Source: Candidatus Cloacimonadales bacterium (GTDB lineage Bacteria > Cloacimonadota > Cloacimonadia > Cloacimonadales > JAIOQZ01). From it: a DNA stretch of 64,000 bases. Each line of letters starts with the position of its first letter. Position 1 is the stretch's first letter. Where the stretch lies: the NCBI GenBank assembly GCA_963662655.2, contig CAXXTU010000002.1, positions 3,360,001 through 3,424,000 of the forward strand, written 5' to 3'. Shown here piece after piece: positions 29,520 through 48,779 of the stretch. A program made the translations under genes and the position numbers. The notes beneath the pieces were generated by a model. That model saw only the letters and a list, made by a program, of their open reading frames with translations, was not told the origin of the DNA and did not search any database.

Positions 29520-29527
29520 GGGGATGT

Positions 29528-31222: not shown

Positions 31223-34200
31223 ATGGCGCGGACACTGGAACTGATTATTGAAGCGAATCTCACGGGCGACAAGGACGTACGCGACCTGATCACCTCTCTG
31301 CAGAAAGAACACAGCCTTAAGATCAAGGTTACTCAGAACAATTTAAAGCAAGCAAGCAAGGACATCGAGAAGAGCGCGGAGAACGCGCGCCAGGCATGGG
31401 AACGGTTCAATTACAGCATCATGGATAAGCCTGACCAGCTCGCAGCCAAATTCAAGAACATGCGAGGCGTGATCGAGAAAGGTTTCGGCTTTGAGGAAGG
31501 TGCGGAAAACGCGAGTGCCGAGGCAAAGAAGGCGTATTCCAAGCTGAACGAATGGTTCCGCAAAGAAAACGAGAAGCTTGCCACCACCATGCAAAGCGGC
31601 GGAAAAAAGGCCAGCGACGGATTCGTTTCCGCATTCGGTTCACTGGGCGGACTTGCGGCAAGGTTTACTTTCTACCGTTTTGCAGTTCAGAGAATCGCGC
31701 AGGATACGGCGCAACTCGCTCAAGCGATGATTCAACCCAGCGTGGAGGTTGAAGCACTCCAGATGAGACTGGACAGCCTTTACCAGAGCACCGTAAAGGG
31801 TGCAATGGCGTATGAGAAATTCGCCGGTATCGCCTCGACAATACCTTTTGAATTGAAAGAAGTAACCAATGCAGGTGCGCAACTCAAGGCATTCGGAATG
31901 AGCGCGACGGAATCGCTGAAGGCAATTGCCGATCTTGCCGCTTTCATGGGGACGGATATCGTGTATGCCGCGAACGCTGCGGGACGCCTTTGGGCTGGCG
32001 GCTGGGGGGCTGCCGACGTATTGCGAGAGCGTGGTGTGACGTCGATGATGAAATCCTTCAACGACATCAAGGATGCATCCAAGCTTTCACTTGAAGCCGT
32101 ACGCGAAGCCTTCATGAAGACGCTGACCGATCCGAAAGCCGGTATTGCCGGTGCAACGGAGAAGCTCGCCCGTTCGATGAAGGGATTGCTTTCCAATATG
32201 CAAGACTCGTGGTACATGCTCCGCGCGGAGATCGGAGAACGCTTTTTACCCGTGCTGAAGGAAGGCACCAAATGGGCCACCAAGTTCATGCGGGAACTTT
32301 CGGAAACGAACCTTGAAAAAACGATCAGGGAACTCAGGCAAATCGGGGGAGCTGCCGAAGACATTAGAAAACTGGAAAAGATCAAGCTGGAACTCGAATT
32401 ATTGGGTGTTGAGAAACAGATCAAGGCGATCAATACCGAAAACAAATCATTGGAAGATATCCAGAACAAAATTAATAAAAACACACAGTATCAAACGAGT
32501 CTTATTAAGACCCAGGGAGAGGCAGAGGCAAATCTAATCGCGATCAGAAAGTCGGAAGAAGAGGGCAAACTCAACAAACGTACGACACAGATCATGATTA
32601 ACAAAATGAAGGCTGAGCAAAAGTTGCTTGGGGCTAACCTGGCCATGAACATTGCTTCGAACACTTCTTTGAAGGCGCTGAGACAGAATACTGAGGATTT
32701 TATTGAAGAGAACTCAAAACGCCTCAAGCAGTTAGACGAGGAAGGGGAAAAGAATTATGACCTTCTTGAGGTGATGCAAAAGAAGTTATTATTAGAAGAG
32801 CAGATAAGTCTTCTTGGGAAACCCATCGATGAAACGAATACAACGCCGGAAGTCAACGAAGAAGAATTGAATAAGGCGCGCAACACGTGGGAAAACTATT
32901 GGCGATCGCTTCAAACCAAACGCGAACAGATCAAGCTTGAAGAAATCGACATGATCGCGGCGTTGAATGCGTATCGGGATAAGGCGGGGTATAAAGAGGA
33001 AAGCGAGTGGTATGAAACGCGCCACAAGATGATTACCGACAACACGACGAAGCTCTATGCCGAACTGGACCGGATGGAAGATGAAGACGATGAGCGCAAG
33101 AAACAAAAGGAAAACGACAGGATCGAAGGAATCTTCCAGAAAGAACTACAAGTAGCGTCGTACAAGAAAGAGTTGGGTGTTGCCAGCAACAAAGACCTGA
33201 TGGAAATCTATGGACGCTATCTGGAATGGCTGGAAACGGCGTATGGCGAAGACAGTGCAGCATATCAGAAGGTGCTTTCAGAGAAAAACAGGGCTGCGGA
33301 GAACTGGCACGACGAGCAGATCGATCATTGGAAAGATCATCACAAGGCTGCGGTGAAGGCGATCGATGCCATCGGTGACGCGTGGTCAACGATGTGGAAC
33401 GAGATGCTCATCGAGGGATGGCAAGGCATGAACTCCCTGCAAAAGATGTGGGATGCTGCCTGGCGAAGCGCGGTACAGGGCATCGCCGATATCACGAAGG
33501 AGTGGATCAAGAAATCGGCGATCGAGCTTATGGTTCAGGAAGAGACTTCGGGATCCAAAGCGGCACTCATGGAATCCGAGGTTGCAGCCAAAGAGGCTTC
33601 CGAGACGCAGAAACAGGCTGCCATTGCCCGAACCGCAAGCGTAGAGAATGGGATTGTCTCTTCAACTGTGCTTTCGAACGCTGTTCAATATTCTTCTGAT
33701 GCAGCGACAAAGGCAATAACGGAGACCGCGAAACAATCTTCTATGACACAGACTGCTGTTATCAGCAAGATAACGGCTGCCTCCGAGATGTTGGACGACA
33801 AGGGCGTCATCGCTACGGAACTGGGGGAATCGGCAGCGAAGGTGATGTCGCAGTGGGCGGACAAGGGGCCTTTTGGTTGGGCTGCCGGTTCGACGCAGGT
33901 GTTGGCGATGGTGGAAACGATGGTTGGTATTATTGCCTCGATACGCCCTCAACTTGGGTTTGCCGGTGGTGGATATACGGGTGACGGCAACAAATACGAC
34001 CTGGCCGGTAATGTTCACAGGGGTGAATTCGTGTTTACTTCCGAGGCGACTCGTGGGCAGATTTTGGGGCTCGACTTACTACACAACTTCATGAAAGCCG
34101 GTGGGAACCTGCTGGATGTCCTCATACCGAGTATCGATTTGAGAGCTGCGGTCATGGCGCCCGGAGCAGGATCGTTCATGGCGGGTGATCCTCAAGTACT

Positions 34201-34351
34201 ACAGGAGCTTCGCGCAATCCGCGGGGAAGTCGCTGGACTGAAGACGTCAATCAACGAAATGCCCGACAAGTTTATACCCGTACAACGGGACACGGACGTT
34301 TACAACGCCAACAAACGAATCGAGAAACGAGTCTCAAGGCGGAGGTTTTAG
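31223..34351 (+). CDS. Tail tape measure protein
   Basis: 1042 aa, helical; PFELKEV...L.AFG, DLAA, GLLSNMQD; lambda-type C-terminus FAGGGYTGDGNKYD.AG.VHRGEFVF. Confidence 0.92.
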   Translation: MARTLELIIEANLTGDKDVRDLITSLQKEHSLKIKVTQNNLKQASKDIEKSAENARQAWERFNYSIMDKPDQLAAKFKNMRGVIEKGFGFEEGAENASAEAKKAYSKLNEWFRKENEKLATTMQSGGKKASDGFVSAFGSLGGLAARFTFYRFAVQRIAQDTAQLAQAMIQPSVEVEALQMRLDSLYQSTVKGAMAYEKFAGIASTIPFELKEVTNAGAQLKAFGMSATESLKAIADLAAFMGTDIVYAANAAGRLWAGGWGAADVLRERGVTSMMKSFNDIKDASKLSLEAVREAFMKTLTDPKAGIAGATEKLARSMKGLLSNMQDSWYMLRAEIGERFLPVLKEGTKWATKFMRELSETNLEKTIRELRQIGGAAEDIRKLEKIKLELELLGVEKQIKAINTENKSLEDIQNKINKNTQYQTSLIKTQGEAEANLIAIRKSEEEGKLNKRTTQIMINKMKAEQKLLGANLAMNIASNTSLKALRQNTEDFIEENSKRLKQLDEEGEKNYDLLEVMQKKLLLEEQISLLGKPIDETNTTPEVNEEELNKARNTWENYWRSLQTKREQIKLEEIDMIAALNAYRDKAGYKEESEWYETRHKMITDNTTKLYAELDRMEDEDDERKKQKENDRIEGIFQKELQVASYKKELGVASNKDLMEIYGRYLEWLETAYGEDSAAYQKVLSEKNRAAENWHDEQIDHWKDHHKAAVKAIDAIGDAWSTMWNEMLIEGWQGMNSLQKMWDAAWRSAVQGIADITKEWIKKSAIELMVQEETSGSKAALMESEVAAKEASETQKQAAIARTASVENGIVSSTVLSNAVQYSSDAATKAITETAKQSSMTQTAVISKITAASEMLDDKGVIATELGESAAKVMSQWADKGPFGWAAGSTQVLAMVETMVGIIASIRPQLGFAGGGYTGDGNKYDLAGNVHRGEFVFTSEATRGQILGLDLLHNFMKAGGNLLDVLIPSIDLRAAVMAPGAGSFMAGDPQVLQELRAIRGEVAGLKTSINEMPDKFIPVQRDTDVYNANKRIEKRVSRRRF

Positions 34352-34354
34352 GGT

Positions 34355-36418
34355 ATGGCGAACGATATTGGATTATACCGTGTAACGGTGAGAGTGGGAT
34401 TTTCCAACTATAACGATCCCAATAGCTGGCACGGAATCCCGAACATCACGAGTGCCCGGATGATCCAGACAAATCATGGTGAAGAGGACGACCCGCTCGA
34501 AGTGTGGGCGTCGAGTTCTACTCCCAATCCATACAGCGGATCGGTAGATTTTGAATTCAGGTTTCCGAAATCCGACTGGCTGAGTGGTATCACTTACATG
34601 CTGCTTGTGGAAGTGGACGGATACGAAAATCTCGAGTTGTATTCCCTGGACGGCTCTACGATCGCGAACTATTGCTCGTACTACCAAGAGCCTTATGCTC
34701 TTCCTCTTCAGGAAATGACGTATATCGTGGTGGGACAAGTTATATTAGCAATTTTCGGCGATGGAATCCACGCGATATCGGGGCTTCATGTCAACATCGG
34801 GACAGGAGATTATTATAATCAGGATTATCTCGAGGTCATGATGGTTCCCGGATATTACACCATTACGATCGACAGCAGCAACTACGTGACGAAGACAAAG
34901 GATATTTACGTTGCCCCTTACGGCTATCAATTGCTCAACATCACACTGACTTACCTGAACTCCGTTGATACCGCGAAAGAAACCGGGCGTATTGCACTAC
35001 GCTTTTTGAGCAAGGAAACGGGACAGGAATACGACGCACAATCCTTGATCCTGCTGGACTCCGACCTTGGAATGAAACGATTGATCAGCGAGAACGGTAT
35101 GCGTGAGGCGAGGGAAATAACGCTTACCTTTGCAAAAAACGATTGGCTTGTTCAGCATTTTCGCGAAACGGACAACGAAACCGGCGACTATTTAATCGAC
35201 ATCTATGCGGGAGCAAACCTCATCATGCGTGGTGTGGCCGATGTGGCTTCGACCGAGATCAATCAGGATACGGTGCGGTTGAGTGTGAACGATTATCTAG
35301 TGCTGATTCCCATTTACGGAGAAAGCTTGTTTCTGAAGGTTCGCGAAACCGTATTGCAGGAGTTTCGCGCGTATCCATCGAACCTACTGCTCAAGGCGAT
35401 TCTGGACGAGATATTCGATGAATCCGGTATCGATTTCAGCTCGCCCGATCTGCCGAACAACTGTAAAGAGGAATTCGATTTTACTGCCGAGCTCCCGGAC
35501 TGGTGGAGCGATGAGGACATCGACGGGCAGGGAGAATACGGACAACGATTTTACATGGGATTTCCCTGTTACAATGCCGACCACGAAGATGGTGAGGATG
35601 TTTTTGCCCCTCTTCTGGACTGCGTGGTGCTTTACCGGACGATATGGTATGCCGAGCAGGGCGACGGTGAGCGAGTTACGCATCTACGAATCATTGTGAA
35701 GGGGCCGAACGGACTGATTTCATTCGATCGGGAGAACACAAGTTACCCCGGGGCATTTCTTTCGGGAACCCGAGAAGCGTGGGAAAAGGATATCGAGATT
35801 TTCAGCATGGATAGCGATTGCGGAATGATGCTGGGCGGACACAATATTCGCGGAATTATGCCGAGTGCCGTCGATACCCGCCAGGTGGACGACCATGAAT
35901 GTCAGATGATCTTCGGCCACAAGGTTTATTCTGCGCGTGTAACCAATTGGGAGAAAATCACCCCGCTGCGAGCCGGAGAATTATCGTATCAGGAAATCCT
36001 GAAATCCATCCTCTGGGTAAAAGACCTGACCGTCATTGCCGACGCGACTGGCCGGATTCGATTCATGAACAGGGAAATGCTGGCGAACGGATTCGATCCC
36101 CTTGTGGTGGGAAGCGACGTTTTGCCAGATGGATGGGTTCTGAGCGACGCGCCGAGCTGGTTCGACTCGGATCGCGAAGAAGATCACAGCGGTGCATTGA
36201 GCGAGGATGCGGAGTTTTTCGAAGAGAAAATCAAACAATTGAAACGGCGAGATGCCGAATCCACATGGAGAAGCCGAAAGGGCGGAGAGCTTGAGGTTCT
36301 TTCCATGATTGACCTGCATTTGGGCGATCAGATCATATTAGATGGTAGAACATTGATCGTGATTGGTTTGAAGCTGGACGACTTTGGCGGAAAGTACGAT
36401 GTCGAGTATCTCGAATAG
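34355..36418 (+). CDS. Tail hub/baseplate protein with N-terminal Ig/PEGA-like domains
   Basis: Follows TMP; PGYYTITI..SNY.T motif; C-terminal LHLGDQIILDG..LIV. Confidence 0.55.
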   Translation: MANDIGLYRVTVRVGFSNYNDPNSWHGIPNITSARMIQTNHGEEDDPLEVWASSSTPNPYSGSVDFEFRFPKSDWLSGITYMLLVEVDGYENLELYSLDGSTIANYCSYYQEPYALPLQEMTYIVVGQVILAIFGDGIHAISGLHVNIGTGDYYNQDYLEVMMVPGYYTITIDSSNYVTKTKDIYVAPYGYQLLNITLTYLNSVDTAKETGRIALRFLSKETGQEYDAQSLILLDSDLGMKRLISENGMREAREITLTFAKNDWLVQHFRETDNETGDYLIDIYAGANLIMRGVADVASTEINQDTVRLSVNDYLVLIPIYGESLFLKVRETVLQEFRAYPSNLLLKAILDEIFDESGIDFSSPDLPNNCKEEFDFTAELPDWWSDEDIDGQGEYGQRFYMGFPCYNADHEDGEDVFAPLLDCVVLYRTIWYAEQGDGERVTHLRIIVKGPNGLISFDRENTSYPGAFLSGTREAWEKDIEIFSMDSDCGMMLGGHNIRGIMPSAVDTRQVDDHECQMIFGHKVYSARVTNWEKITPLRAGELSYQEILKSILWVKDLTVIADATGRIRFMNREMLANGFDPLVVGSDVLPDGWVLSDAPSWFDSDREEDHSGALSEDAEFFEEKIKQLKRRDAESTWRSRKGGELEVLSMIDLHLGDQIILDGRTLIVIGLKLDDFGGKYDVEYLE

Positions 36419-36427
36419 GTGATTGAA

Positions 36428-36946
36428 ATGAGCGAAGTACAACATTTTATTGGATATGGGAAACTGAGAGTCGAGTATGGCGGCTTGGTGGCTGAATTCG
36501 AGAAGACAACCGAAATTGAATTCCATGCCGAAGAGGAATACGAGATTTACAAGAACGTACGAGGCGGCCCCGAGAGCGGGAAACGATTCATGTGCTCCGG
36601 CGGGTATTATATGAAGATCGCCCGACGGGTGTATTATACGGAAGCCACTTCAAAAGAGACGTTCAAGAAGTTTATCCGGATCCTCAACAACAGCCGACAA
36701 AGCAATCCTCGCTGGCGGGATCCGATCAAGGTGTATCCCGAGTATGACCCGAACTTTGAGCATAATCAGTGGTACTGGTGTTACATGACGAATGGCGCGA
36801 ACTGGCATCGGGCTTTTACGGCAGAAGTAGGCCAGTACCGAGACCTTGAATTTATTGGAAGCGAACTACTACTTCACGAGCCGAGCTACACACACGGTGA
36901 CGGTGAAGGCTATGGCGAAGACTATGGCGACGACTATGGAGGTTGA
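36428..36946 (+). CDS. Putative distal tail protein
   Basis: RBS AGGTGA; ends in repeated GYGEDYGDDYGG. Confidence 0.45.
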   Translation: MSEVQHFIGYGKLRVEYGGLVAEFEKTTEIEFHAEEEYEIYKNVRGGPESGKRFMCSGGYYMKIARRVYYTEATSKETFKKFIRILNNSRQSNPRWRDPIKVYPEYDPNFEHNQWYWCYMTNGANWHRAFTAEVGQYRDLEFIGSELLLHEPSYTHGDGEGYGEDYGDDYGG

Positions 36947-37917
36947 CAATGGCCATTACAGATCACTTTGAACTATACTTACCCGCAGCGCATGAAGACG
37001 GATGCGCCAGCGCCCTGAACAACAACCTGATTACGATCGATGGGCTGATGTATGCGAATCAGCAGGCAATCGCGAACCACATGTCGAGCGGAACAGCACA
37101 CCAGGCGGCGAAAATCACGGCTTCCGGCCCGGGTGGGGCAACAAACGCTCAGGCGGCATTGAATTATCTGGAATCCGCGAAGAGTAATACAGGCCACACA
37201 CATCCAGGATACGCCACTACATCTGTGACTGATAATATCGAAGAGCGTCTTGAAGCCGTTGAAGATCAGATTGAAGGGCTTGATCCGAACAAGGTTCTTG
37301 TCACTTCCGGTGATAGCGATTTGGCGACGGAGACGAAGAGAACTGCCCACAACAAGGACTTCGGGACGGGCGCAACAGACGTAATGCCTGGTAACTATGC
37401 TTACTCGAAGGCGGAAACCGATGCAAAGGTTGCGGGGATCAACGAGAATGTATCGGGAATAACGCTTTCTGGTATCAGCGCGCGCGACCAGAATGAGAAT
37501 GTGCGTCTGATACTGCCGCAAGTAATATCCGCAATTACGGGCATCGCCCTGTCCGGGCCCTATACGATCGAGTATATCGTAGATAATACGGCAACCATCG
37601 ACTGGAGCCTTACGACATCACAGGAAACGTTGATATCTACACAAAACCATGTGGCCGTACCGAAACCGGTGGAGGGCGATAGCGTGTACAATTCGACGGC
37701 GTACGTGCACTACCGCGTGAAGTTTACCAACGCGAATTCCACGAGCTATACCCCTTGGACGGCGGGAAGCCTTGCGGTGGATGAACCGGCGGATTTTGTC
37801 GAGCAGGTTGCTGACCGCATCATTGCGAACAGTACGGCAATGGCGCTGGTGGGAGACCGTGTTGCAACGAATCCTGCTGCTATAGCCGCGATTTCGAGCA
37901 ATATCGCTTCTTCGTAG
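36943..37917 (+). CDS. Putative tail fibre protein
   Basis: LNNNLITIDG, H.A..I, TN.QAAL..L, GHTH, YSKAETDAK fibre-type motifs. Confidence 0.6.
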   Translation: MTMAITDHFELYLPAAHEDGCASALNNNLITIDGLMYANQQAIANHMSSGTAHQAAKITASGPGGATNAQAALNYLESAKSNTGHTHPGYATTSVTDNIEERLEAVEDQIEGLDPNKVLVTSGDSDLATETKRTAHNKDFGTGATDVMPGNYAYSKAETDAKVAGINENVSGITLSGISARDQNENVRLILPQVISAITGIALSGPYTIEYIVDNTATIDWSLTTSQETLISTQNHVAVPKPVEGDSVYNSTAYVHYRVKFTNANSTSYTPWTAGSLAVDEPADFVEQVADRIIANSTAMALVGDRVATNPAAIAAISSNIASS

Positions 37918-37932
37918 AAACAGGAGAAATGA

Positions 37933-38871
37933 ATGTCTTGGAGATTACCGGAAAATCTGCGCATACAAGGTTTGGGAAAGTATATCCGAAACGACGGGAC
38001 GCCGAGAGATCGTGGAATTGAGATAACCGGTGAATTTTTCGGCGTGAAGAATCCACCGACGACGCTGGACCAGGCGACGAACGATTTGCGGAGGATTTTC
38101 CGCGAGGACAACCTGGCGGAACGGAGAGTGATGCGGAAGGAAGTGGAGATCGAAGCTGGTGGAGAAGCGGGGACAGTATCCGGGCTCCTGCAACACGATT
38201 TCATGGCGATGTCGGCAGGAACGTACTACGTGAACAATGACGTTTGCCTCGGGCAAAGCTGCCAATGGAAGCGGATTCAGGTGACAGACTACGCGGCGAT
38301 CAATGACAACCTACTACCGAAGTACGTATCCGTTACCTACAACGGTAAAACCATAACTTTCAGCAACGATTCCGGTGGTGGATCCAAGACTTGGTCTGAC
38401 AAGGCAGGCGACGATCTGCTTGCGAAAGAGATAGCAACGGTGATACAAAACTATTTCGGGGCCGAGAGCGACGAGATCATCGTTGCAGGTGAATATGACG
38501 ACTACATCTTTTTCAGGGCGGATGTGTTCACCGCGGTGTCGCTGAACTATACGACGGGATTCGACCCTGCCAACACGACGCTTTCGACCGAAACCGCACC
38601 GTGCTATGTTGACTCGAAACTGTACGGTGATTGTGCTTACAATACCTACGCGAAGAGCAATATCTATTTCCCTTCGAGTAGCGCCGAACTGGGCGGATTC
38701 CCTGTGATCATGTCCAACTGTCGAGCTTGCGAGGTTTGTATCCACGCGTGCCCAGCATTGGCGATCTACAATCGGCTAACAAAGACTGCCGAGAGCCTAT
38801 CGTCGATCAATCCTAATCTTCGGGATGAATGGGTGAAATGCGCACAGGCGAAGATGGGTGATGATTTGTAA
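37933..38871 (+). CDS. Last late-operon protein, with C-terminal ferredoxin-like CxxCxxCxxxCP motif
   Basis: RBS AGGAG; CRACEVCIHACPALAI at 38719-38766. Confidence 0.6.
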   Translation: MSWRLPENLRIQGLGKYIRNDGTPRDRGIEITGEFFGVKNPPTTLDQATNDLRRIFREDNLAERRVMRKEVEIEAGGEAGTVSGLLQHDFMAMSAGTYYVNNDVCLGQSCQWKRIQVTDYAAINDNLLPKYVSVTYNGKTITFSNDSGGGSKTWSDKAGDDLLAKEIATVIQNYFGAESDEIIVAGEYDDYIFFRADVFTAVSLNYTTGFDPANTTLSTETAPCYVDSKLYGDCAYNTYAKSNIYFPSSSAELGGFPVIMSNCRACEVCIHACPALAIYNRLTKTAESLSSINPNLRDEWVKCAQAKMGDDL

Positions 38872-38899
38872 CATCCTGTGGATTTATGATGGTAAAGAG

Positions 38900-38924
38900 A
38901 AACCCCGTGCGACCACGGGGTTTT
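38900..38924. terminator. Bidirectional intrinsic terminator between late operon and accessory array
   Basis: AAACCCCGTG-cgac-CACGGGGTTTT between convergent genes. Confidence 0.75.
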
Positions 38925-38934
38925 GACTATGAAG

Positions 38935-39318
38935 TTATACGGAATCTTCGTACTTGTCAAGCAGCAAGTCAATACCCTTTTTAATGACGCCGGGGAAGCT
39001 ATTGATATCATTGAACGTATCAACCCCATCCCCCGATTGAGTTCTTCCGATGTAAACTTTGACGAAAAAATCCTCTACTATGAACGTGCCATCTTTGATC
39101 TCTTCAGTTCCGGGATACATGTAAATCGCTCCGATGTGCTTCGTTTTAACAGGTCGGGTGCTTTCCAGTACGTGGACAAGCTCGATGCAGCATAGTTCAT
39201 TATCCGAATTTGGGGGTATTATGTGCAGTGCGAACTTGGCTGTTTCTCTGAGAACGGATTTAAGTTTGTTTCTGACAACCTTTTCGTCTTTAAGATGATC
39301 GAGAACTGCTTGAATCAT
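38935..39318 (-). CDS. Hypothetical accessory protein
   Basis: RBS AAGGAG; 127 aa. Confidence 0.65.
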   Translation of the reverse strand: MIQAVLDHLKDEKVVRNKLKSVLRETAKFALHIIPPNSDNELCCIELVHVLESTRPVKTKHIGAIYMYPGTEEIKDGTFIVEDFFVKVYIGRTQSGDGVDTFNDINSFPGVIKKGIDLLLDKYEDSV

Positions 39319-39358
39319 GGATTACTCCTTAGCTATGTGGTTTGTACTATGAAATGCA

Positions 39359-40567
39359 CTAGCATTGTTTCCTCGCTGGCTCGAGTTTTTGTGCTTTTTT
39401 GTTGTCGGTGTTACCAATCGGGACAAGTTCCTTGATTTTGAATGAGTTAATACCCCCTGTAAACTCTAAGCTAATCCTGTGTGTGGGTGTGAATTCCTGT
39501 ATATCAATTGCAGCAAGCAATCGGTAGAGTTTGCTATCCATTTGTAAAGGGGGAGCGATATCTTCTACAGCAAAATAGGTGTCAAGGTTGGAGGATTTTC
39601 CTGGAACTCTGACGATGAAACTGGATTCAGACAAGTCGTTTTTAATCGTTAATCCCGTATATAGACTCGTTGCTTTGTAATCACAATCCTCATTGACACA
39701 TTGGCAATCGTAGGTTTCGCCAATTTCGATAGGTGTATAAATCTCATCCTTAAGCTGTGTGAACTGCTCAAGTATATGATTTTGAGCGCTTTTAAGGAGT
39801 GATAGGACTTCCTCCCTGGAAAGCATTTCGTCTTTCTCGATTATATCTTGCCTGATTTTTTCGAATGCAAGGAAAGAGTTTATCGATCGATGAATGACCG
39901 ATCCCAAAATCGTATCGCAATCTGCGCTACCGTCATCGATTCGGTCAAAGCAATGAAGATATTGAACGACATCAATTATTTTGTGCCTGCCATCAGGAGT
40001 CAGTATCAATATTATTTCGGGAGTAATATCTGGTATATCCTTGTTGTATTCATTGGGGAAATCTAATAAGAGTCTATTGCAGTAAGCCGCTGCAACAAAT
40101 CTTATTGCATCGTGAAGTCTATACTGATTTTTATCAGTAAGACCATCGATGTAAACGTTCCTCTGCTCCTCATAATCTCCGTAGTTTCCAACATTGGCCA
40201 GTTTATTTAGCCGGTCAACCACGTACACGATAAGCGCTTGTTGGACAACGGGAAATGATGATGTTTCGATGGAAAATGTGAATCCCGAGCTCAGCAATCG
40301 TTTCCAAATGATACGGAACCAACCAGAGCCAGATGTACGATCAAGATATTCTCCACATCTCATGTGCATGTCGAGGTTCTCGCAAGCTTCAGGAGAATCA
40401 GTGATTGTCTCACCTTCTTCTCGAATCCAGGCTTCAATGGTGGAACAGCTAACTTCACATATTTCTGCGAGTCGTCGTATCGTGTAGCCAAAATCATCGT
40501 GTAGGTCGTGGAGAGTTTCATTAAAATCGACAAGCTCCATGAGTTCCTTGATTTCTTTTTCTTTCAT
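39359..40567 (-). CDS. Hypothetical protein with N-terminal HTH and Cys-rich motif near the C-terminus
   Basis: Start MKEKEIKEL overlaps upstream stop (ATGA); YTIRRLAEICEVSCSTIEAW HTH; CQCVNEDC; AT-rich. Confidence 0.65.
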   Translation of the reverse strand: MKEKEIKELMELVDFNETLHDLHDDFGYTIRRLAEICEVSCSTIEAWIREEGETITDSPEACENLDMHMRCGEYLDRTSGSGWFRIIWKRLLSSGFTFSIETSSFPVVQQALIVYVVDRLNKLANVGNYGDYEEQRNVYIDGLTDKNQYRLHDAIRFVAAAYCNRLLLDFPNEYNKDIPDITPEIILILTPDGRHKIIDVVQYLHCFDRIDDGSADCDTILGSVIHRSINSFLAFEKIRQDIIEKDEMLSREEVLSLLKSAQNHILEQFTQLKDEIYTPIEIGETYDCQCVNEDCDYKATSLYTGLTIKNDLSESSFIVRVPGKSSNLDTYFAVEDIAPPLQMDSKLYRLLAAIDIQEFTPTHRISLEFTGGINSFKIKELVPIGNTDNKKAQKLEPARKQC

Positions 40568-40899
40568 TGGTTTTCCCTTGACCCTGGGATTTCGACTATA
40601 GGATGTCTCATGCGTTCTTCTCTCATGGGAGAAATCTGAATAGGTGGAGTGATGCCTATCTCTTGGAATCTTTCCCAATGAGATTTGAATGGTTCCGATT
40701 CGCAGTATTCTTTGAGCTTCTTTCTTTCGAATGGGGTGAGGGGTGTTTTCTTTAGCACGATCTTGCTGATGGCTTTGCGGACTATTTCTTCTCGCTTTTT
40801 CCAGCGACGAAGCATTTCAACGAGTCTGCCTTCGGTTGCCGCTTTGCGAAAATACGTTGTTCCGTTCTCGTGTTTCACTATCCACGGTATTTCACTCAT
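40564..40899 (-). CDS. Hypothetical protein, paralogue of 40930..41274
   Basis: Shares ENGT.Y and RKAI.KI..K.TPLTP.E.KKL.EY.E. Confidence 0.7.
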   Translation of the reverse strand: MSEIPWIVKHENGTTYFRKAATEGRLVEMLRRWKKREEIVRKAISKIVLKKTPLTPFERKKLKEYCESEPFKSHWERFQEIGITPPIQISPMREERMRHPIVEIPGSRENQ

Positions 40900-40929
40900 G
40901 GTGTGTCTCCTTTGACTATATATCTTCCA

Positions 40930-41274
40930 CTATAGTGGTATGATTCTAATTCCGTGCGTATTCATCCAACGCTCATAATCGAGATAGGTGAAATTCAGGC
41001 TATGCGGAGGTTTTAGCAACATTTCTTCGAACCTTTGGAAAGATAACCTCCGTTGTTCTGCTTCGCGATACTCTATAAGCTTCTTTTGCTCGTATGGTGT
41101 GAGCGGGGTTGTTTTGAATAATATCTTTTCGATAGCCTTGCGGGTAATATCCCTACGATGGATCAACCGGCGACAGGCCTCAATGAAACTGCTTGCGGCT
41201 GGCGATGTATCTTGAATGTCTTTCATAGACAAATAGACAGTTCCGTTCTCGTATACCCAAACGGAATTTATCAT
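40930..41274 (-). CDS. Hypothetical protein, paralogue of 40564..40899
   Basis: Same shared motifs; RBS GAGG. Confidence 0.7.
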   Translation of the reverse strand: MINSVWVYENGTVYLSMKDIQDTSPAASSFIEACRRLIHRRDITRKAIEKILFKTTPLTPYEQKKLIEYREAEQRRLSFQRFEEMLLKPPHSLNFTYLDYERWMNTHGIRIIPL

Positions 41275-41303
41275 GCGTTCCTCTCTTGACTATATGGTTT
41301 CTA

Positions 41304-41591
41304 CTATATATCTTGTTGTAACTGCTGCAATTGTTCCCATTGATACAGTGTTCTGAGAACCGCTTTACTTGGGGTGTTTAATCCCGATTCCTGTTTGTAC
41401 ACTGCGTTTTTTGATATTCCGGCGATGGAACCGAGTTTTGCTTGTGACATCCGGTGTTTTTGTCGCCACAGTTTCAATCCCTTATAGATATCCATGGTGT
41501 TTCCTTTCGAATCTGTGAAAACGATATTGCCGTCGATCTCTTCGATGTTGGCGTCTTTTTTGGGGCGATCTGCTGCGATGCCTTTCCTCAT
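41304..41591 (-). CDS. XRE-family HTH regulator
   Basis: LKLWRQKHRMSQAKLGSIAGISKNAVYKQESG..TPS. Confidence 0.85.
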   Translation of the reverse strand: MRKGIAADRPKKDANIEEIDGNIVFTDSKGNTMDIYKGLKLWRQKHRMSQAKLGSIAGISKNAVYKQESGLNTPSKAVLRTLYQWEQLQQLQQDI

Positions 41592-41624
41592 TGTTGCTCC
41601 TTGAATTGAAGTACGGACGATCGA

Positions 41625-41861
41625 TCATGACACGGCCGGAAGAATGCGATCGTCGTCCAGAACCATGGGATTTACACTATGGGAGTGAGAAAGAACATGG
41701 TCATGATTTGGTGAAATGCTATCTTCTTCCAATGACAGCATGATGTCAGAAATTACCGCTCGGGCGAGCTCTGGTGATGCTGAGACAACGTCAAGCGCTG
41801 AGCCGCGTAATTTCTCGTCTGGAATTTTTCGGATGATCTCGTTGATATTTGCGCGTTTCAT
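41625..41861 (-). CDS. Small hypothetical protein, first gene of accessory operon
   Basis: RBS AAGGAG; downstream of a consensus promoter. Confidence 0.55.
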   Translation of the reverse strand: MKRANINEIIRKIPDEKLRGSALDVVSASPELARAVISDIMLSLEEDSISPNHDHVLSHSHSVNPMVLDDDRILPAVS

Positions 41862-41925
41862 GGGTACTCCTTTGTTGTATTTTGCACGTCAACAACACCC
41901 TGTGAAATCAGCACAATACAAATGG

Positions 41926-41953
41926 ATTATAATATCTCGTCATACCATGTCAA
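41926..41953 (-). promoter_or_regulatory. Consensus sigma70-type promoter
   Basis: TTGACA-16 nt-TATAAT on minus strand. Confidence 0.7.
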
Positions 41954-42002
41954 GCGTTTTATCATCTGAACCATGTTTTTTTCACCATGGGGTTACATGG
42001 TC

Positions 42003-42044
42003 TTATTCTGCTTTTATTCTGCTTTTATTCTGCTTTTATTCTGC
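42003..42044. repeat. Tandem repeat: TTATTCTGC x4 with 11-bp period
   Basis: Read directly from sequence. Confidence 0.9.
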
Positions 42045-42115
42045 ATATATTCAGATTTGCAGAAAAGGAAAAAACGTTGGTTGTGGGGTGTAATATCTGT
42101 TTCGATAGTGGAGAC

Positions 42116-42145
42116 AAAAAGAAGCCGGCCCATCTGGACCGGCTT
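42116..42145 (-). terminator. Intrinsic terminator after the beta-clamp gene
   Basis: AAGCCGG...CCGGCTT stem with U-tract on minus strand. Confidence 0.65.
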
Positions 42146-42174
42146 TGTGCGTGTTGACGTGCTGTTACGGATTG

Positions 42175-43344
42175 CTATAAGTTTCGTAAAGGCATGATGA
42201 GGATTGTTTTATCATTGCCCAAATCTCCCCGCTGAATAAGGCAGCCGTGTTGATTGTTGCCCGACGAGCGTAAAACCAATGATTCATCACTAAAGGTGTT
42301 CAGCATTTCCTTGAGGAACGAACCATTGAAAGCGATTTGCAGGATGTTCCCCGGCTGATTGTGATTTGACTCGATTTCAATTTCGGTGGTGAATCCGTCT
42401 TTTTCGCTTCCAGCGCTGAAAACCGTTTTATGCTCGTGGATTTCCAGCCGGATTTTCTTTGCTTCCGTGCTCTTGAATGACGGTTCCATCTTCTTGACAG
42501 CATCCAGAAAGGTCTTGCGGTCAAAGACGGATTCGAAAGGCGTATCGGGAAAACACTTCTCGTAATCGGGGAACCGCCCTTGAATGATTGTCGAACGGAA
42601 CTGAAAGTCATAGGTTCCGACTTGATCAAGGATGACAGCGGTTACACGTGGCTTTTCGGCGCTTTTCGAAGTTACAAGGTTCAGGGTGATATCTTGCCAG
42701 CCTTTCAGCTTTGCAAACTGGTCGATGATTCCACCGTGCAGGATGAAATTCACGGTATCCGCGGGAACGTGTTCGGGCAATCCGGCGTCCATCTGGATTT
42801 CGAGAATCTTTTTGCCGTCCGTTGCACAAAATGCGATTCGATTCTCACCTTTCACCTTGACATTGATACCGGTGAAAATCGGTCGATTGCTTTCTTTCGA
42901 GAGAAACGGTTTCATCTTTTGGAGCATATCGAGGAACGCTGGAGCCGGGAACGTAAGGCAACCAAATATCCTTTCATCACTATGGAGCATTGAAACGTCT
43001 GGAAACCGTTCGGCGTCTTGTGTTGGTAGGGCGTACTTAACGCCGTCGGTGACGATGCTGAGATTTTCGCCTTGACTTTCGATCCAGATATCATCTGCTT
43101 TGATAAGCTTGACGATTTTTGAAAGGTCTTCGAGCTTCACGCAATAGGTTCCGGGGTTTTCGCAGACAGCCGGAACCTTTGCTTTTGTGGTCTGATCAAG
43201 GTTCGAGGATTCGAGTATCAAGCATTCATCGTTCGATCGGATCCGAATCGATTTCAAGATGAGCGGGTTGTTCTTTGCTTGCTTGACTTGGGTAAGGTTG
43301 ACGATTGCTTTCTTCAGGTCGGCGGTTTCAATCATTGCTTTCAT
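42175..43344 (-). CDS. dnaN: Prophage-encoded DNA polymerase III beta sliding clamp homologue
   Basis: 389 aa; RPIFTGI, ATDG, GRFPDY, IAFNGSFL.E.L, C-terminal LIMPLR signature. Confidence 0.85.
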   Translation of the reverse strand: MKAMIETADLKKAIVNLTQVKQAKNNPLILKSIRIRSNDECLILESSNLDQTTKAKVPAVCENPGTYCVKLEDLSKIVKLIKADDIWIESQGENLSIVTDGVKYALPTQDAERFPDVSMLHSDERIFGCLTFPAPAFLDMLQKMKPFLSKESNRPIFTGINVKVKGENRIAFCATDGKKILEIQMDAGLPEHVPADTVNFILHGGIIDQFAKLKGWQDITLNLVTSKSAEKPRVTAVILDQVGTYDFQFRSTIIQGRFPDYEKCFPDTPFESVFDRKTFLDAVKKMEPSFKSTEAKKIRLEIHEHKTVFSAGSEKDGFTTEIEIESNHNQPGNILQIAFNGSFLKEMLNTFSDESLVLRSSGNNQHGCLIQRGDLGNDKTILIMPLRNL

Positions 43345-43365
43345 GATGAATTCTCCTTTGGTGTT

Positions 43366-43524
43366 TTATTGGTTGGTTGGTTGAATTTCTTTTACGTGGA
43401 TCGTATCGTCATCCTTCGAGTATTCACACAAGTCGCCGATTGTAGCGTTTGTGTTAGGATATCCTACAGCAGTAAGTTTTTCGCTGTCTGTCATAAACTC
43501 AGACCAGTTATTCATTGTTTTCAT
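43366..43524 (-). CDS. Small acidic hypothetical protein
   Basis: RBS GGAG before MKTMNNW; between ardC and dnaN. Confidence 0.45.
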   Translation of the reverse strand: MKTMNNWSEFMTDSEKLTAVGYPNTNATIGDLCEYSKDDDTIHVKEIQPTNQ

Positions 43525-43543
43525 GGTTTGTTCTCCTATTGGT

Positions 43544-44398
43544 TTATGCACACGATTTCAGGATGATTGCAGTTCTTTTCATGATGAAGTTAACTGCTGC
43601 ATCTGCATCTTTCGCAGCGCGGATAATTTGTGACGGGTCTTTTTCCAGGAAGGTGTTCCAGTGATCAATATAAGATGCTGATTGTCCTTCTGTGGCGGGG
43701 TTTGCAATTCCAGCGATTGAGCATAAAATCGCAGCGCCGATTTCCGCAACCAGTTCTTCATAAGCTCTTGACTTCGTGGTTCGGTCAATGTGATAGTTGC
43801 GGAGTGATTCACGGTCAAGGCGTGACTTGTGTCCGGTGCTGTGGATCATTTCATGAAAGATGGTTGAATAATGTGCAGCGTCTGATTCTCGAAAGCTTTC
43901 GTGTGGTGTTCTAATCCTGTCAGTCATTTGAGAATAAGCCGCGGTCGGTGTGTTGTGGGTTTCGATCGTAACCGGTGACATTTCAACGATTCTTTGCGCC
44001 TCTTCGAATCCATTCAGTACTTCAACAGGTTCGATCTGGTCAAAGGATATCGTGGTCTGTGATACGTTGAACACATGGTAATAACGCCAGACCAGATATT
44101 CTTGCAATTCGCCGTCCTCGTTTTCCTTATCGATTTCCTTACAGAAGAAAATCGCCGCCGCCTTTTCTCCGGTCTTGATGTTTCCGTCCATGGCTTTGAC
44201 TTGCTTGAATGTTAGAAAGCCAGGATGAGAAAATCCAAGCCATAAAAGGAAGGGAACGTTGCTACCTGAGTAATGACGACCAGATTCAAGGTTGTAAGGC
44301 ATCGGAACAGCGTAAGGCTTGCGCCATGGGTTAACGCCATTTTGGATTTGATCAAGGATTCTTTGCGTGACTTTTTCGGAAACTTTTGAACTTGCCAT
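43544..44398 (-). CDS. ardC: ArdC-like antirestriction protein (ssDNA-binding + zincin-like domain)
   Basis: PWRKP, Y.G.N, FLTFKQ, VFNVSQ, HEMIHSTGH..RL.R, YEELVAEIGAA. Confidence 0.88.
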   Translation of the reverse strand: MASSKVSEKVTQRILDQIQNGVNPWRKPYAVPMPYNLESGRHYSGSNVPFLLWLGFSHPGFLTFKQVKAMDGNIKTGEKAAAIFFCKEIDKENEDGELQEYLVWRYYHVFNVSQTTISFDQIEPVEVLNGFEEAQRIVEMSPVTIETHNTPTAAYSQMTDRIRTPHESFRESDAAHYSTIFHEMIHSTGHKSRLDRESLRNYHIDRTTKSRAYEELVAEIGAAILCSIAGIANPATEGQSASYIDHWNTFLEKDPSQIIRAAKDADAAVNFIMKRTAIILKSCA

Positions 44399-44436
44399 TG
44401 TTATAACTCCTTGTTGTTTTTAGTATTTACGTTCTT

Positions 44437-44464
44437 ATTGTATTCTTTAGTAATACCATGTCAA
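44437..44464 (-). promoter_or_regulatory. Sigma70-type promoter of ardC-dnaN operon
   Basis: TTGACA-16 nt-TACAAT; shares CTTGACATGGTAT with the promoter at 41926-41953. Confidence 0.7.
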
Positions 44465-44841
44465 GGCTTTTCTTTGTGATCCGGCACTTTTTTATTAGAC
44501 AAAACCTACCTTCTGTTACCTACAGCATCAGATAACAACCCGCTGATATGGGGGGTGAGAGTGTCCTTGTGAATTTCGATAGGGGAACGAACTCAAGACT
44601 CAAGGGAAAGAGTGTTCCGAGAAGACGGTAAAGCCGGAACAGAAAGGCGAGAATGACCGCGAATTTCATGAGTGTATAGCTATATGACTAAGCGGAGTTC
44701 CGTAAAATAGAGGAACCGGAACAAGCCATATTGGGAGAATAAGGCAGGGGGGGGGGGCTTCGAAAACTCAGGAATTGCTTTCCTGAAATGTCCCCACTCG
44801 GATTCGCTCTGCCAACTTTTTGCAGGTTTGGGATATTTTCC

Positions 44842-44870
44842 TTGACGTGGTGACAATTGTCGTACAGAAT
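44842..44870 (+). promoter_or_regulatory. Promoter with palindromic operator for RHH-recombinase operon
   Basis: TTGACG-17 nt-CAGAAT enclosing palindrome GACAATTGTC. Confidence 0.5.
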
Positions 44871-44897
44871 TGATTTGAAATGTATTGGAGGTACGTA

Positions 44898-45062
44898 ATG
44901 CAGAGAACAGAGAGGATTCAGGTACGGGTATCCCCGATTGAGCGGGAGATGTTCAACAAGGTTCCGGGGGAAAGGGATTCGGACAAGTTCCGGTACCTGC
45001 TTTACAATTGGGACAAGAACCACAAGGAGGCTCGTAATGGGAAAGAAAGAAATCGTCGATGA
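44898..45062 (+). CDS. Small ribbon-helix-helix-like DNA-binding protein
   Basis: RBS GGAGG; MQRTERIQVRVSPIERE beta-strand/helix pattern. Confidence 0.55.
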   Translation: MQRTERIQVRVSPIEREMFNKVPGERDSDKFRYLLYNWDKNHKEARNGKERNRR

Positions 45063-45747
45063 GATTGCGGCAATCTTCAAGAAGAATCATCTGAGCTACG
45101 ATCAGGCGACGAGTTATTCATCGCTGGCACGAAAACAGGCGGAAATCGAGAGACCGACACGAAAAAGGGCAAAAGCGGAAACGCCCACGCTCATTGTGAC
45201 AGGACGCTTTCTGCAGGAGATATCCAAGAAGGGTATGAAGCAACGACTCATGATGCGGATGCTTCTCTTCATGGCTTTTCGTTCGGACGAGTTTCTCGAT
45301 ATCAGGATTGACGATGTCGATCTCACGCCTGGACGGGAAAAGATATATGTGAGGAAACGCAAGAAAGGCCAGAGCGAATACTTTGCAATCCCATCCTTAC
45401 TGGTGGAACCGATCAGCTTCTACATCGAGACCGTAATCGGCAAGCAGGTTTACCTGTTCGAATCAGGCCCATGCAAGCGATATACAACGCGGGGATTGCG
45501 TCAGATGATGCAGCGTTGTAGAGATCAAGCCGGATTGCCCAAGACGCTTCATCCTCACTCGTTCCGGCACGTCACGCTGACGTTTCTCGCCGGTGAAGGA
45601 ATGAACACGTTCAAACTGAAGAACGTATCGGGACATCTTGACGAATCGTCATTGATACACTATACGCATACGAACCCTGAACACGTCCGGAGTGATCTCG
45701 ACCGAATGTTGCCCAAGCTGGATCAGATATTGAGAACTGTTGCATAA
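45037..45747 (+). CDS. Short tyrosine recombinase (resolvase-like)
   Basis: RBS AAGGAGG; FRSDE, K, HPHSFRH, GH......HY catalytic residues. Confidence 0.85.
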   Translation: MGKKEIVDEIAAIFKKNHLSYDQATSYSSLARKQAEIERPTRKRAKAETPTLIVTGRFLQEISKKGMKQRLMMRMLLFMAFRSDEFLDIRIDDVDLTPGREKIYVRKRKKGQSEYFAIPSLLVEPISFYIETVIGKQVYLFESGPCKRYTTRGLRQMMQRCRDQAGLPKTLHPHSFRHVTLTFLAGEGMNTFKLKNVSGHLDESSLIHYTHTNPEHVRSDLDRMLPKLDQILRTVA

Positions 45748-45799
45748 TACTTGACAATGATAATCCGGAACTTGAAGCTTCGTCAAAAGAGGAGGTTTC

Positions 45800-46348
45800 A
45801 TGATCAGGACAATAACCTTTTTGTTGTTGATGGGGATTTTTATGACGCTTTGCGCCAAGACAGACGAGTATCGTACGACCGATTACAACAGCCGATTGAT
45901 GAACAATCCCAACGCCACGAGCGATTCGGACATGCTGTGCCGGATCCCGAAAGGCACCAAGCTGAAGATCATCGAAAGCAAGGACGTTGTCCAGGGGATG
46001 ATGAAAAACCGCTGGTATAAGGTGAAGTACAATGGGAAAACCGGTTGGGTTTCGGGCTGGAACATGAGCGAACCGGAAGAACTCCATGTTATGACCGTTG
46101 AAGAACGAAAAGTGGAAGTGGAAAAATTGCTGGATTGGGACAAGGTGTATTTCGATATTAAAGAAGACATACGAAAGCGATGGGCAGGCGAGACGGTTAA
46201 ATTCGTCCAGGTGAAATCCGCTTACCAGGTAAATACATATTGGATTGTCTATGCGACCTACAGGACAGCCGGAAGATATATCGAAGAAAAATACTGGATC
46301 AAGGAAGACGGAACGATTCACAAGTATGAGTATCGAGAAAATTACTAA
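45800..46348 (+). CDS. Secreted SH3b-domain protein
   Basis: Signal peptide; IPKGTKL...WYKVKYNGKTGWVSG. Confidence 0.75.
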   Translation: MIRTITFLLLMGIFMTLCAKTDEYRTTDYNSRLMNNPNATSDSDMLCRIPKGTKLKIIESKDVVQGMMKNRWYKVKYNGKTGWVSGWNMSEPEELHVMTVEERKVEVEKLLDWDKVYFDIKEDIRKRWAGETVKFVQVKSAYQVNTYWIVYATYRTAGRYIEEKYWIKEDGTIHKYEYRENY

Positions 46349-46377
46349 TTGAACAGCTTGCTTCAAACAATAGACAG

Positions 46378-46405
46378 ACGCCTCCTCACGGGGGCGTTTT
46401 CTTTT
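46378..46405 (+). terminator. Intrinsic terminator
   Basis: ACGCCTCC-tcac-GGGGGCGT followed by T-rich run. Confidence 0.6.
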
Positions 46406-46648
46406 GGTTACACCTATAAAAAAAGAAGCTCGCATGTTCGCGCGCGTACGATGTGCATATAAACGCGAAGATGGTGTCACAAGTGTCACCACATAATATA
46501 AAAGACATACTTATTATATTATATATCAATACATTATATTAATTCTTCCTTGGTGACACTTTGGTGACAGTTGTGACAGTTGCGGGTGGTGTCCCGTCCT
46601 AAAATAGTTGACCAGCTTTTTCGTGTTTGATTTCATTTCGATTGCTTC

Positions 46649-47530
46649 CTACGCTGCGTTCAATATCTCGTTCGGTGTGCGGTAGCCCTGCGTGATGATG
46701 AGCCGTTCTTCGTTGTAGATCCGAACTGCTTCCTCTACGTACTTCAGCGCGTCGTCGAAGTCCCTGAATCTCCGTTCCAGCCCCAACTCGTGCTTCAGAA
46801 TCCCGTTGATGCGCTCCGCCTTGGCGTTGTCGTAGCACTTGCCCGGACCGGTCATGCTGGTGCGATAGCAGTAGCGTCGCAGCGCGTTCTGGAAGCAGGC
46901 GCTGGTGAATTGCGTACCATGATCGGAGTGGTGGATGCAGCCTTTGATATCCACGGCTCCGGCATTGCGCAACGACCTCATCGCCCGTTTCAGAGAGAGC
47001 GCTGGACCATGCGTGCGCAGGTCGGGCTGCAGCGAATATCCCAGGATCGCGTCCGAGTACTGATCCGAGGTCAGCGAAAGGTAGGCGAATCCGCGTTGCA
47101 AGCGGATGTAGGTGATGTCGCTCGCGATGATCTGGCCGACGCGGCGAGCGATGATGTCCTTCACCAGGTTCGGGTGTCGACTGCGGCTGCCCAGGCTCGT
47201 GCGGAGGTATGAGCGGTACGCCGTCGACAGCAGCCCGTAGTCGCGCAGGATGCCGAACAGCCGGTCGCGACCAACCTCGAGCCCGCGCGCCTTCAGCATG
47301 TATTGCAGCTTCCGCGCCCCGACGCGTGGCTGTTTCACGCGAATCTCGCGCACGGCGGATACGATCTCCTCCACCTCCGCCTGGAGCCGATGGAGCCGCT
47401 TCCTGTGCTGGTAGTAGCTCTGCTTGCTGCGACCGAACAAGCCGCAAATCACCTGCATGTTCGCGGCTACTTCTCTTTCTTTCGCGACAGCTCGACATTC
47501 GGTGACAACAGCGAACCAGTCTTTTTTTTT
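46649..47530 (-). CDS. IS3 transposase OrfB (DDE domain), reached by -1 frameshift
   Basis: SDITYI, HHSDHGTQF, DNAKAERINGILKHE, YNEER; A9G slippery run at 47521-47530. Confidence 0.9.
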   Translation of the reverse strand, partial: KKKDWFAVVTECRAVAKEREVAANMQVICGLFGRSKQSYYQHRKRLHRLQAEVEEIVSAVREIRVKQPRVGARKLQYMLKARGLEVGRDRLFGILRDYGLLSTAYRSYLRTSLGSRSRHPNLVKDIIARRVGQIIASDITYIRLQRGFAYLSLTSDQYSDAILGYSLQPDLRTHGPALSLKRAMRSLRNAGAVDIKGCIHHSDHGTQFTSACFQNALRRYCYRTSMTGPGKCYDNAKAERINGILKHELGLERRFRDFDDALKYVEEAVRIYNEERLIITQGYRTPNEILNAA

Positions 47531-47874
47531 GCGCTGTTGCCGTACTTGCGCTCGGTCACGTTCACGATCGCCTGCAACGCGCAGTTCTCCAGCACTTTCT
47601 CGCTCAACGCAGCCTGCAAATCCTGCACCTTCTTCTCCAGCTCCGCGATTGTCTTGTCCTTGTAATCTTCTTTCGCCATGCGACCTCGCTTTTGAGCTCC
47701 CTTGCGTCGCGCCGGCTTCACGGCGTCCTCTTTGATCCAGCGATACAGCGTGCGAACGGATATGTCGTACTGCTCCGCGAGCTCCGCCACGCAGTAGTCG
47801 CTCGTCAGCACGTGATGCAGAACACGCGCCTTCACCTCGCAACGCTTCGCCCGTCGTTTCACATTTTCTCCCAT
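47467..47874 (-). CDS. IS3 OrfA (HTH)
   Basis: VAELAEQYDISVRTLYRWIK plus leucine-zipper-like segment. Confidence 0.85.
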   Translation of the reverse strand: MGENVKRRAKRCEVKARVLHHVLTSDYCVAELAEQYDISVRTLYRWIKEDAVKPARRKGAQKRGRMAKEDYKDKTIAELEKKVQDLQAALSEKVLENCALQAIVNVTERKYGNSAKKKTGSLLSPNVELSRKKEK

Positions 47875-48767: not shown

Positions 48768-48779
48768 CATGCTCCCAAC

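Follow-up and report, generated by a model that had tools for sequence, protein, structure and literature searches.

What is the short repeat that stands at the gene junctions of a small operon in a Candidatus Cloacimonadales prophage, and how does it come to be there? The stretch analysed here, called the window throughout, comprises 64,000 nucleotides (nt) of Candidatus Cloacimonadales bacterium (assembly GCA_963662655.2, contig CAXXTU010000002.1, positions 3,360,001 to 3,424,000 of the forward strand). An original prediction had read five degenerate 24-bp copies in it as the borders of a cassette-like gene array and had named a repeated operator among the alternatives. We find that the repeat is real, selected and common to two loci, and that the operator alternative fits it best. 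On balance, sequence and placement favour putative oriented twin-box, two-dimer operators of the operon's own XRE protein, which would be confined to one accessory operon and would also mark points of gene exchange.

All five 24-bp minus-strand copies lie where they had been placed (high coordinates 41308, 40934, 40600, 39351 and 38931), but their count was low, as there are seven, those at 41662-41681 and 41970-41989 having been missed. The conserved unit, moreover, is not the 24-mer but a 20-bp direct hexamer repeat, YATRGT-N8-YATRGT, with a 14-bp period and an A-rich spacer; the last four letters of the 24-mer adjoin or form part of the Shine-Dalgarno sequence. The seven copies, here called sites A to G (Table 1), are all on the minus strand within 3.1 kb (38912-41989). 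When 38.8-44.6 kb was scanned for two hexamers separated by 5-11 nt, exactly seven pairs emerged, all with 8-nt spacing and all on the minus strand. The autocorrelation peaked at a direct offset of 14 (3.35, against 1.84 for the best inverted centre), and exact boxes are biased to the sense strand, with 9 there and 2 on the opposite strand. For site G, the alternative register that takes the site as a second half only scored -6.6, against 16.7 for the chosen register, and was rejected.

The five original 24-mers share 12-19 of 24 positions in pairwise comparison. The genome-wide matrix scan proposed with the original prediction nevertheless places them far above background: in a leave-one-out analysis of the genome carrying the window (G000), 1, 8, 5, 5 and 19 of 7,628,916 positions scored at least as high as the held-out site, counts that include the training sites and the held-out site itself. 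The 24-bp repeat is therefore far beyond chance. With the five-site matrix, sites B and A came sixth and ninth in the whole genome, the original five included. With a ten-site matrix the seven sites scored 21.2-27.6 bits; the best other position in the genome reached 18.0, and nothing else in the prophage exceeded 13.9. The next-best genome match (C2:2313642) is isolated between unrelated ORFs (open reading frames).

The placement of the copies largely agrees with what had been described. Four of them end 9-11 nt before an ATG (measured 10, 11, 9 and 9 nt), and two, sites C and D, supply the TAG stop of the upstream gene. The copies had been said to sit exactly at gene junctions, but the 40600 copy (site E) falls within the upstream ORF itself, in its final 13 codons. 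The fifth copy, site G, does follow the last gene, and its overlap with the terminator consists in its second half forming the 5′ arm of the hairpin at 38900-38923, which is absent from the list of a separate terminator scan. Around the operon promoter, where single boxes cluster, site A lies outside the predicted transcript; an inverted hexamer copy stands beside it at 41996-42001, and a single hexamer at 41944-41949, shared with the ArdC promoter, overlaps the -35. Sites A, B and G (3 of the 7 window copies) are not start-associated. In sum of features, the sites are asymmetric, lie on the sense strand in 7 of 7 cases and occur at the promoter and at gene junctions, as operators and stoperators do.

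We then compared the locus with related genomes. The operon head was found in one of 61, a congener (G002), where the -35 is followed by a 78-aa ORF (59% identity), the XRE gene (84%) and genes of 143, 131, 134 and 135 aa. The window's 127-aa protein has homologues in two of these, the tandem paralogues of 131 and 135 aa (37% and 23%), and the cargo gene that had been called an orphan is thus not one. Only the XRE gene and the 78-aa ORF occupy the same place in the two loci, and the 127-aa cargo family stands at different ranks in the two arrays. G002 has four sites, between different genes. A 20-mer matrix from the five original window sites ranked three of them 1, 2 and 3 of 79,962 positions, while the fourth, the orthologue of site C (41308), has a 7-nt spacer. 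In the reverse direction, a matrix from three G002 sites ranked five window sites 1-5 of 7.6 million, one of the five being the direct orthologue of a G002 training site, and the other two 40 and 48. The G002 junction before the 131-aa gene carries no site, and the end of the last G002 gene has only a weak one (rank 140 of 79,962). A 3′ site follows or overlaps the gene end in 6/6 window genes and 4/6 G002 genes.

The two loci also differ in a manner tied to the sites. DNA identity between G000 and G002 stops at the 3′ end of site C. The sites bracket single genes, as had been proposed, and gene content changes exactly downstream of one of them. The two paralogues seen in the cargo, P1 and P2, are confirmed as such, and their duplication unit starts at the first box of a site. 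At the long G002 junction, the position of the site tracks the downstream start rather than the upstream stop. The G002 copy is a fragment of 2.5 kb, flanked on one side by a DDE transposase gene and on the other by a short repeat that adjoins a 5′-truncated host gene; it ends at this insertion sequence (IS) and this repeat, not at sites. The 40 kb covered at the G002 locus contain no phage genes matching those of the window, and we read this copy as a relic.

Selection on the repeat is seen at site B. In G002 this copy keeps 18 of 20 bases, whereas 33 of 85 are retained in the part of the ORF next to it (Fisher p 3e-5); all 6 of its 6 third codon positions are kept (one of them in a Met codon), and both changes are non-synonymous. 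The constraint at site B thus acts on the nucleic acid. Site B is the best-conserved copy, yet it lies 53-70 nt from the next start.

Table 1. Sites, operon genes and other features of the prophage, in window coordinates.
Feature	Position	Strand	Remark
Site A (CATGGT-N8-CATGGT)	41970..41989	-	16 nt upstream of the -35; weakest-supported copy (genome rank 9)
Site B	41662..41681	-	Inside 78-aa ORF; genome rank 6 with five-site matrix
Site C	41289..41308	-	Holds XRE stop codon; G002 homology ends at its 3′ end
Site D	40915..40934	-	Holds P1 stop codon
Site E	40581..40600	-	Within final 13 codons of P2
Site F	39332..39351	-	Starts 7 nt past 402-aa stop
Site G	38912..38931	-	After last gene; G002 has a site, then another gene, at the equivalent place
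Sigma-70 promoter-like site, consensus (12/12, 16-nt spacer)	41926..41953	-	From promoter scan; -35 kept in G002; predicted activity
78-aa ORF, no family	41625..41861	-	Equal-length G002 orthologue, 59% identical
XRE/HTH_3 protein, 95 aa	41304..41591	-	84% identical in G002; candidate site binder
P1, 114-aa ORFan	40930..41274	-	From sequence searches
P2, 111-aa P1 paralogue	40564..40899	-	41% identical to P1 in pairwise comparison
402-aa ORFan	39359..40567	-	Weak N-terminal helix-turn-helix (HTH) signal (Pfam E 0.034)
127-aa protein	38935..39318	-	Two homologues (37%, 23%) in G002 array, none elsewhere
Terminator-like 10-bp hairpin	38900..38923	.	Overlaps site G; RNA folding z -3.0; between operon and convergent tail gene
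Catalytic-domain tyrosine recombinase, 236 aa	45037..45747	+	3.0 kb from site A; no link to sites shown
XerD-like tyrosine recombinase, 351 aa, not IntI	54583..55638	+	No link to sites shown
Host prophage	17743..59469	.	53-bp direct repeat of tRNA-Arg 3′ part at both ends (17743-17795, 59417-59469)

If the sites are operators, each would take up two XRE dimers, one on each of its self-complementary YATR cores, much as restriction-modification (R-M) controller proteins occupy a pair of TATA cores spaced by 15 bp. Initiation would be limited by the copy nearest the promoter, and the copies within the operon may serve for co-operative binding or as roadblocks. The strong early promoter and the small genes behind it would in this way be kept quiet in the lysogen, with perhaps a short burst of expression on entry of the DNA into a new cell or on induction of the phage. 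Because every gene border carries a look-alike site at which breaks would tend to fall, duplications and swaps by ordinary or microhomology-driven recombination could give the locus a cassette-like look without a dedicated recombinase.

We compared this proposal with known systems. Reg576 of plasmid p576 binds dual boxes upstream of the -35 and of the ribosome-binding site (RBS) (PMC6294495). As there, short boxes are paired, with one pair upstream of the -35 (site A) and others upstream of the RBS (sites C-F), and the establishment module of p576 has an ardC antirestriction gene nearby; Reg576, however, is a ribbon-helix-helix (RHH) protein whose operators flank four separate promoters, whereas here there are one promoter, five internal or terminal sites and no box pair at the ardC promoter. 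Nor is there a good -35 upstream of the internal boxes, and thus no promoter beside each operator of the Reg576 type. L5-type repressors halt elongation at oriented sites between genes (PMC9283540), and these Cluster A stoperators (L5, TipsytheTRex) resemble the present sites in being asymmetric, oriented with transcription and placed at the promoter and in short intergenic spaces. They differ in being 13-mers spread genome-wide, to which the immunity repressor binds as a monomer (PMC9283540), whereas the twin boxes are gathered in 3.1 kb and the phage cI has other, palindromic boxes. In spelling, the sites are close to those of C.Esp1396I, of which two HTH dimers bind two TATAGTC-containing operators 15 bp apart (PMC2504287). 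Its C-box operators (PMC2504287, PMC3351150) share the two TATAGT words in direct repeat and the adjoining HTH protein, but here the period is 14 (13 once) instead of 15, the GACT half is lacking (0/22), many copies are present rather than one upstream of a C gene, and neither R-M genes nor a C-protein match of the XRE protein is found.

Oriented repeats of putative function before the starts of small genes are also described for phages T1 and TLS (21-nt intergenic repeats; PMC11447400) and for Cluster K phages (start-associated sequences, SAS, and extended SAS, ESAS; PMC3203893), although these are genome-wide and spelled differently, and ESAS are inverted repeats. SAS stand at a fixed distance from the start, as do the junction sites here (13-16 nt, 7/7), and only before starts, which sites A, B and G do not. 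The PeSL elements (promoter plus stem-loop) of T4-type phages are regulatory repeats that stand between ORFans and double as points of exchange (PMC2839356), but the twin-box sites are neither promoters nor stem-loops. By analogy, then, the sites may work like stoperators or Reg576 dual boxes while being spelled like R-M controller operators; membership in each of the compared operator families fails on at least one defining feature, and the likeness is one of working only.

Several observations weigh against this operator proposal. The second box ends 13-16 nt before the ATG at 7 of 7 junction sites, a spacing that is tighter than a roadblock needs and is suggestive of an RNA-level role. Stops fall in YA/TAR, split as YA followed by TAR, in 7 of 10 array genes, against 186 of 2,928 (6.4%) long genome ORFs, a count of 7 that is not independent, as it includes two orthologous pairs; the stops of ArdC and the beta clamp are also of this form, though both genes are without a site. 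A site follows the last gene, which, like the placing of the stops, is a cassette-like feature, and site A, the weakest copy, is without a clear G002 counterpart. No C protein was found among the 15 PDB matches of the XRE protein at E ≤ 1, and the GACT half of C-boxes stands before none of the 22 hexamers. The 78-aa protein, or a small protein encoded at 44880-45062, could be the binder instead. Finally, there are only two loci, and every comparative statement made here rests on them.

The start spacing is what an RNA-level junction signal would explain. An RNA-binding protein or ribonuclease would then recognise, on the mRNA, the two AUAGU-like boxes between stop codon and Shine-Dalgarno sequence, and would couple translation or cut the transcript into single-gene pieces, as with sequences of the SAS type, for which there is a described precedent (PMC3203893). 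We regard this as unlikely, although it accommodates the narrow range of start distances at the seven junction sites, the tracking of the downstream start in the long G002 junction, the strictly sense-strand boxes (9 against 2 exact) and site G, which stands where G002 has a site and a further gene and may be a leftover leader. Site A, in contrast, precedes the promoter and follows a terminator-like hairpin at 42122-42145, the best-conserved site B is far from the next start, and the junctions have no RNA structure in common. No hairpin was shared by the 12 junctions folded as RNA and as DNA on both strands; DNA folding gave z < -2 within 30 nt on either side only at 38931 (terminator-like) and at 40934 on the top strand, and the one strong structure among the folded junctions was the 10-bp hairpin overlapping site G. 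Rfam gave no gathering-level match, and its two sub-threshold hits are not in the array. Phage-specific promoters or activator sites, each starting or boosting the gene behind it, appear very improbable. TATAGT is one base off the -10 consensus, and the 402-aa protein has a weak hit to sigma-70 region 4 (E 0.034), but no -35 better than 4/6 lies 16-18 nt from any of 12 boxes, the sites overlap the RBS region with almost no leader left, and one copy is at the operon end. Antisense or internal sigma-70 promoters were also considered for the boxes and rejected on the promoter scan and the -35 check.

The stops in the first boxes, together with the exchange evidence, are the ground for a site-specific cassette array of a new kind, in which a gene and its 3′ twin-box site would form a unit, crossover would take place in the hexamer, and the recombinase at 45037, that at 54583 or a host enzyme would excise and insert units. 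This is rather unlikely. We hold it to be quite doubtful, too, that these are hairpin-free, dif-free cassettes whose first box gives the stop and which a non-IntI phage tyrosine recombinase would insert, duplicate and excise, as a variable array behind a fixed head of promoter, 78-aa ORF and XRE gene. In their favour, every window gene has a site at its 3′ end, G002 homology ends at site C, the P1/P2 duplication unit begins at a box, the ORFan cargo is of mixed GC content (0.365-0.456) with one family at different array ranks, and catalytic motifs are kept, by eye, in both recombinases. The exchange evidence fits cassettes, but it also fits any swap that keeps genes and leaders whole. That the sites are integron-like or pdif-like, as had been suggested, finds no support: they are direct rather than inverted repeats without inverted arms or a shared single-stranded DNA hairpin, 11 of 11 spacers differ, with 7 nt at the site C orthologue, and one copy precedes the promoter while another lies within a gene. 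Moreover, no site precedes the 131-aa gene of G002 and that of its last gene is weak, the G002 fragment ends elsewhere than at sites, and no solitary cassettes were found elsewhere in G000. Integron arrays, including the phage clusters of attC sites lacking an integron integrase (CALINs; PMC9892861), likewise have one gene per unit, a 3′ site and ORFan cargo, but here there is neither an attC hairpin nor an IntI. For the comparison with pdif modules, a search with a dif core pattern gave 13 genome matches and no clear dif. A pdif site has inverted 11-bp Xer arms around a 6-bp spacer; such inverted arms are lacking here, where the direct period of 14 dominates.

The prophage has three tyrosine recombinases, at 45037 and 54583 and an integrase at 58197. 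The first two, one of which had been suggested to act on the sites, failed the IntI model TIGR02249 (39 bits for 45037 and 80 bits for 54583, against a cutoff of 265), lie 3 and 12.6 kb away, and have no close match in G002 (90% complete), where only a 28% match to 45037 was found and none to 54583 at E ≤ 1e-15; a relic, however, need not keep its enzyme. That the junctions are a functionless relic, alike through serial duplication of one leader with decaying similarity, is hardly to be expected either. P1/P2 and the 131/135-aa pair are tandem paralogues and the sites vary widely, but the boxes persist while the genes have diverged to 23-41% identity or are unrelated, and site prediction works across genomes. 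The selectively kept in-gene copy, site B, largely refutes this explanation.

Returning to the operators, the XRE protein is the simplest candidate binder, because its gene and the 78-aa ORF are the genes common to both loci. The cI protein is an unlikely binder, since the cI/cro control region has two different palindromic boxes (48781-48824), likely the cI operators, that occur nowhere else in the window. The protein encoded at 44880-45062, which looks RHH-like by eye, gave no Pfam match and no meaningful PDB match and is not in the G002 fragment. Its small ORF overlaps the catalytic-domain-only tyrosine recombinase gene (44880-45747), divergent from ArdC, and the pair resembles a plasmid resolvase module, of which no relative was found.

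As for the cargo, no family, fold or defence-system match was obtained for any of its proteins in profile, PADLOC and structure searches, nor any nuclease family match. Beyond HTH hits, PADLOC gave nothing but a weak match of the 143-aa gene of G002 to KwaB (E 0.0014). The 402-aa protein had been called an AT-rich HTH protein, but its unit in the array is only slightly richer in AT than its neighbours (GC 0.414 versus 0.424-0.453) and its HTH signal is weak, and its structure model (pLDDT 41.7) is too poor for use. For the model of the 127-aa protein (pLDDT 73.5), PDB and BFVD yielded nothing at E ≤ 0.001, and Atlas matches were all < 0.9. The position of the cargo, next to the ArdC and beta clamp genes and behind a strong early promoter, suggests host-interference or establishment functions.

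The search for further relatives was extended to proteins, loci, genomes and DNA patterns. Locus searches with P1, an XRE alignment, a 127-aa alignment, the 45037 recombinase and ArdC yielded no further relatives. In protein searches, P1 and the 402-aa protein matched only the window's own protein, the XRE protein its two known copies only and the 127-aa protein three known family members only. Genome searches located P1 in 1 genome of 201, the XRE protein in 2 of 121 and members of the 127-aa family in 2 of 8; a strict site pattern occurred in 3 of 151. Scans with DNA patterns returned 0, 1, 2 and 44 loci, and on rescanning of 51 loci none encodes a relative. Assembled contigs of 3 sequencing runs, compared with the window and the G002 locus, contained no joint at sites and no third array variant; two of the runs (X1 and X2) are one sample with both loci unchanged, may be their source and are thus not independent, and the contig result does not show absence.

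Some look-alikes were met on the way. A Flavobacteriales metagenome-assembled genome carries a perfect 14-bp tandem repeat (L054:2500-2585) whose unit matches the motif in period and spelling and is probably unrelated. In unrelated phages of 67-68 kb, many co-oriented ATAGTGCAAA-type words, which resemble the first half of the motif, stand near a genome end (L099:700-1960; also L067 and L081), three of them in tandem at 13-14-bp spacing. A limited literature search found nothing for this look-alike word and no described non-integron phage cassette array matching the present one. Separately, an invertible or MITE-like (miniature inverted-repeat transposable element) element of 200 bp at L006:16400-16603 is in opposite orientation in G000 and has several copies in congeners.

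The operon is part of a leftward block in a prophage of 41.7 kb. Between the tail genes and the cI gene (48072-48830), the block comprises ArdC, a 52-61-aa ORF, the beta clamp, a terminator-like hairpin, the promoter-like site and the six operon genes in the order 78-aa ORF, XRE/HTH_3, P1, P2, 402-aa and 127-aa. The ArdC antirestriction gene and the beta sliding clamp occupy 42175-44398, and the clamp is 29% identical to the host clamp. Directly upstream of site A and the promoter are four tandem 11-bp repeats (41998-42041). A 15-bp extension over and behind the -35 is common to both strong leftward promoters (41926-41960, 44437-44471) and occurs nowhere else in the genome; it may be a second operator or a promoter duplication. 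At 46455-46582, GTGTCAC-type repeats are arranged in inverted sets around a 60-bp AT-rich stretch, and the phage has a 1041-aa primase at 51086; we take this layout to recall the origin of primase-helicase replicons such as SaPI. An IS3-family element (46649-47896) is inserted between this origin-like region and cI. A 27-bp partial second copy of the att core at 17642-17668, 100 bp outside attL, is perhaps the scar of an earlier insertion at tRNA-Arg.

Should the repeat instead mark true cassettes, gene arrays would have a third way of arising, next to integrons and pdif modules. If the XRE operators we favour are real, they would form a compact, oriented operator array that governs one prophage accessory operon rather than a whole genome, with a twin-box spelling near that of R-M controller operators, and such arrays would double as exchange points for ORFan genes. 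This would be a modest extension of the control known from phages and plasmids.

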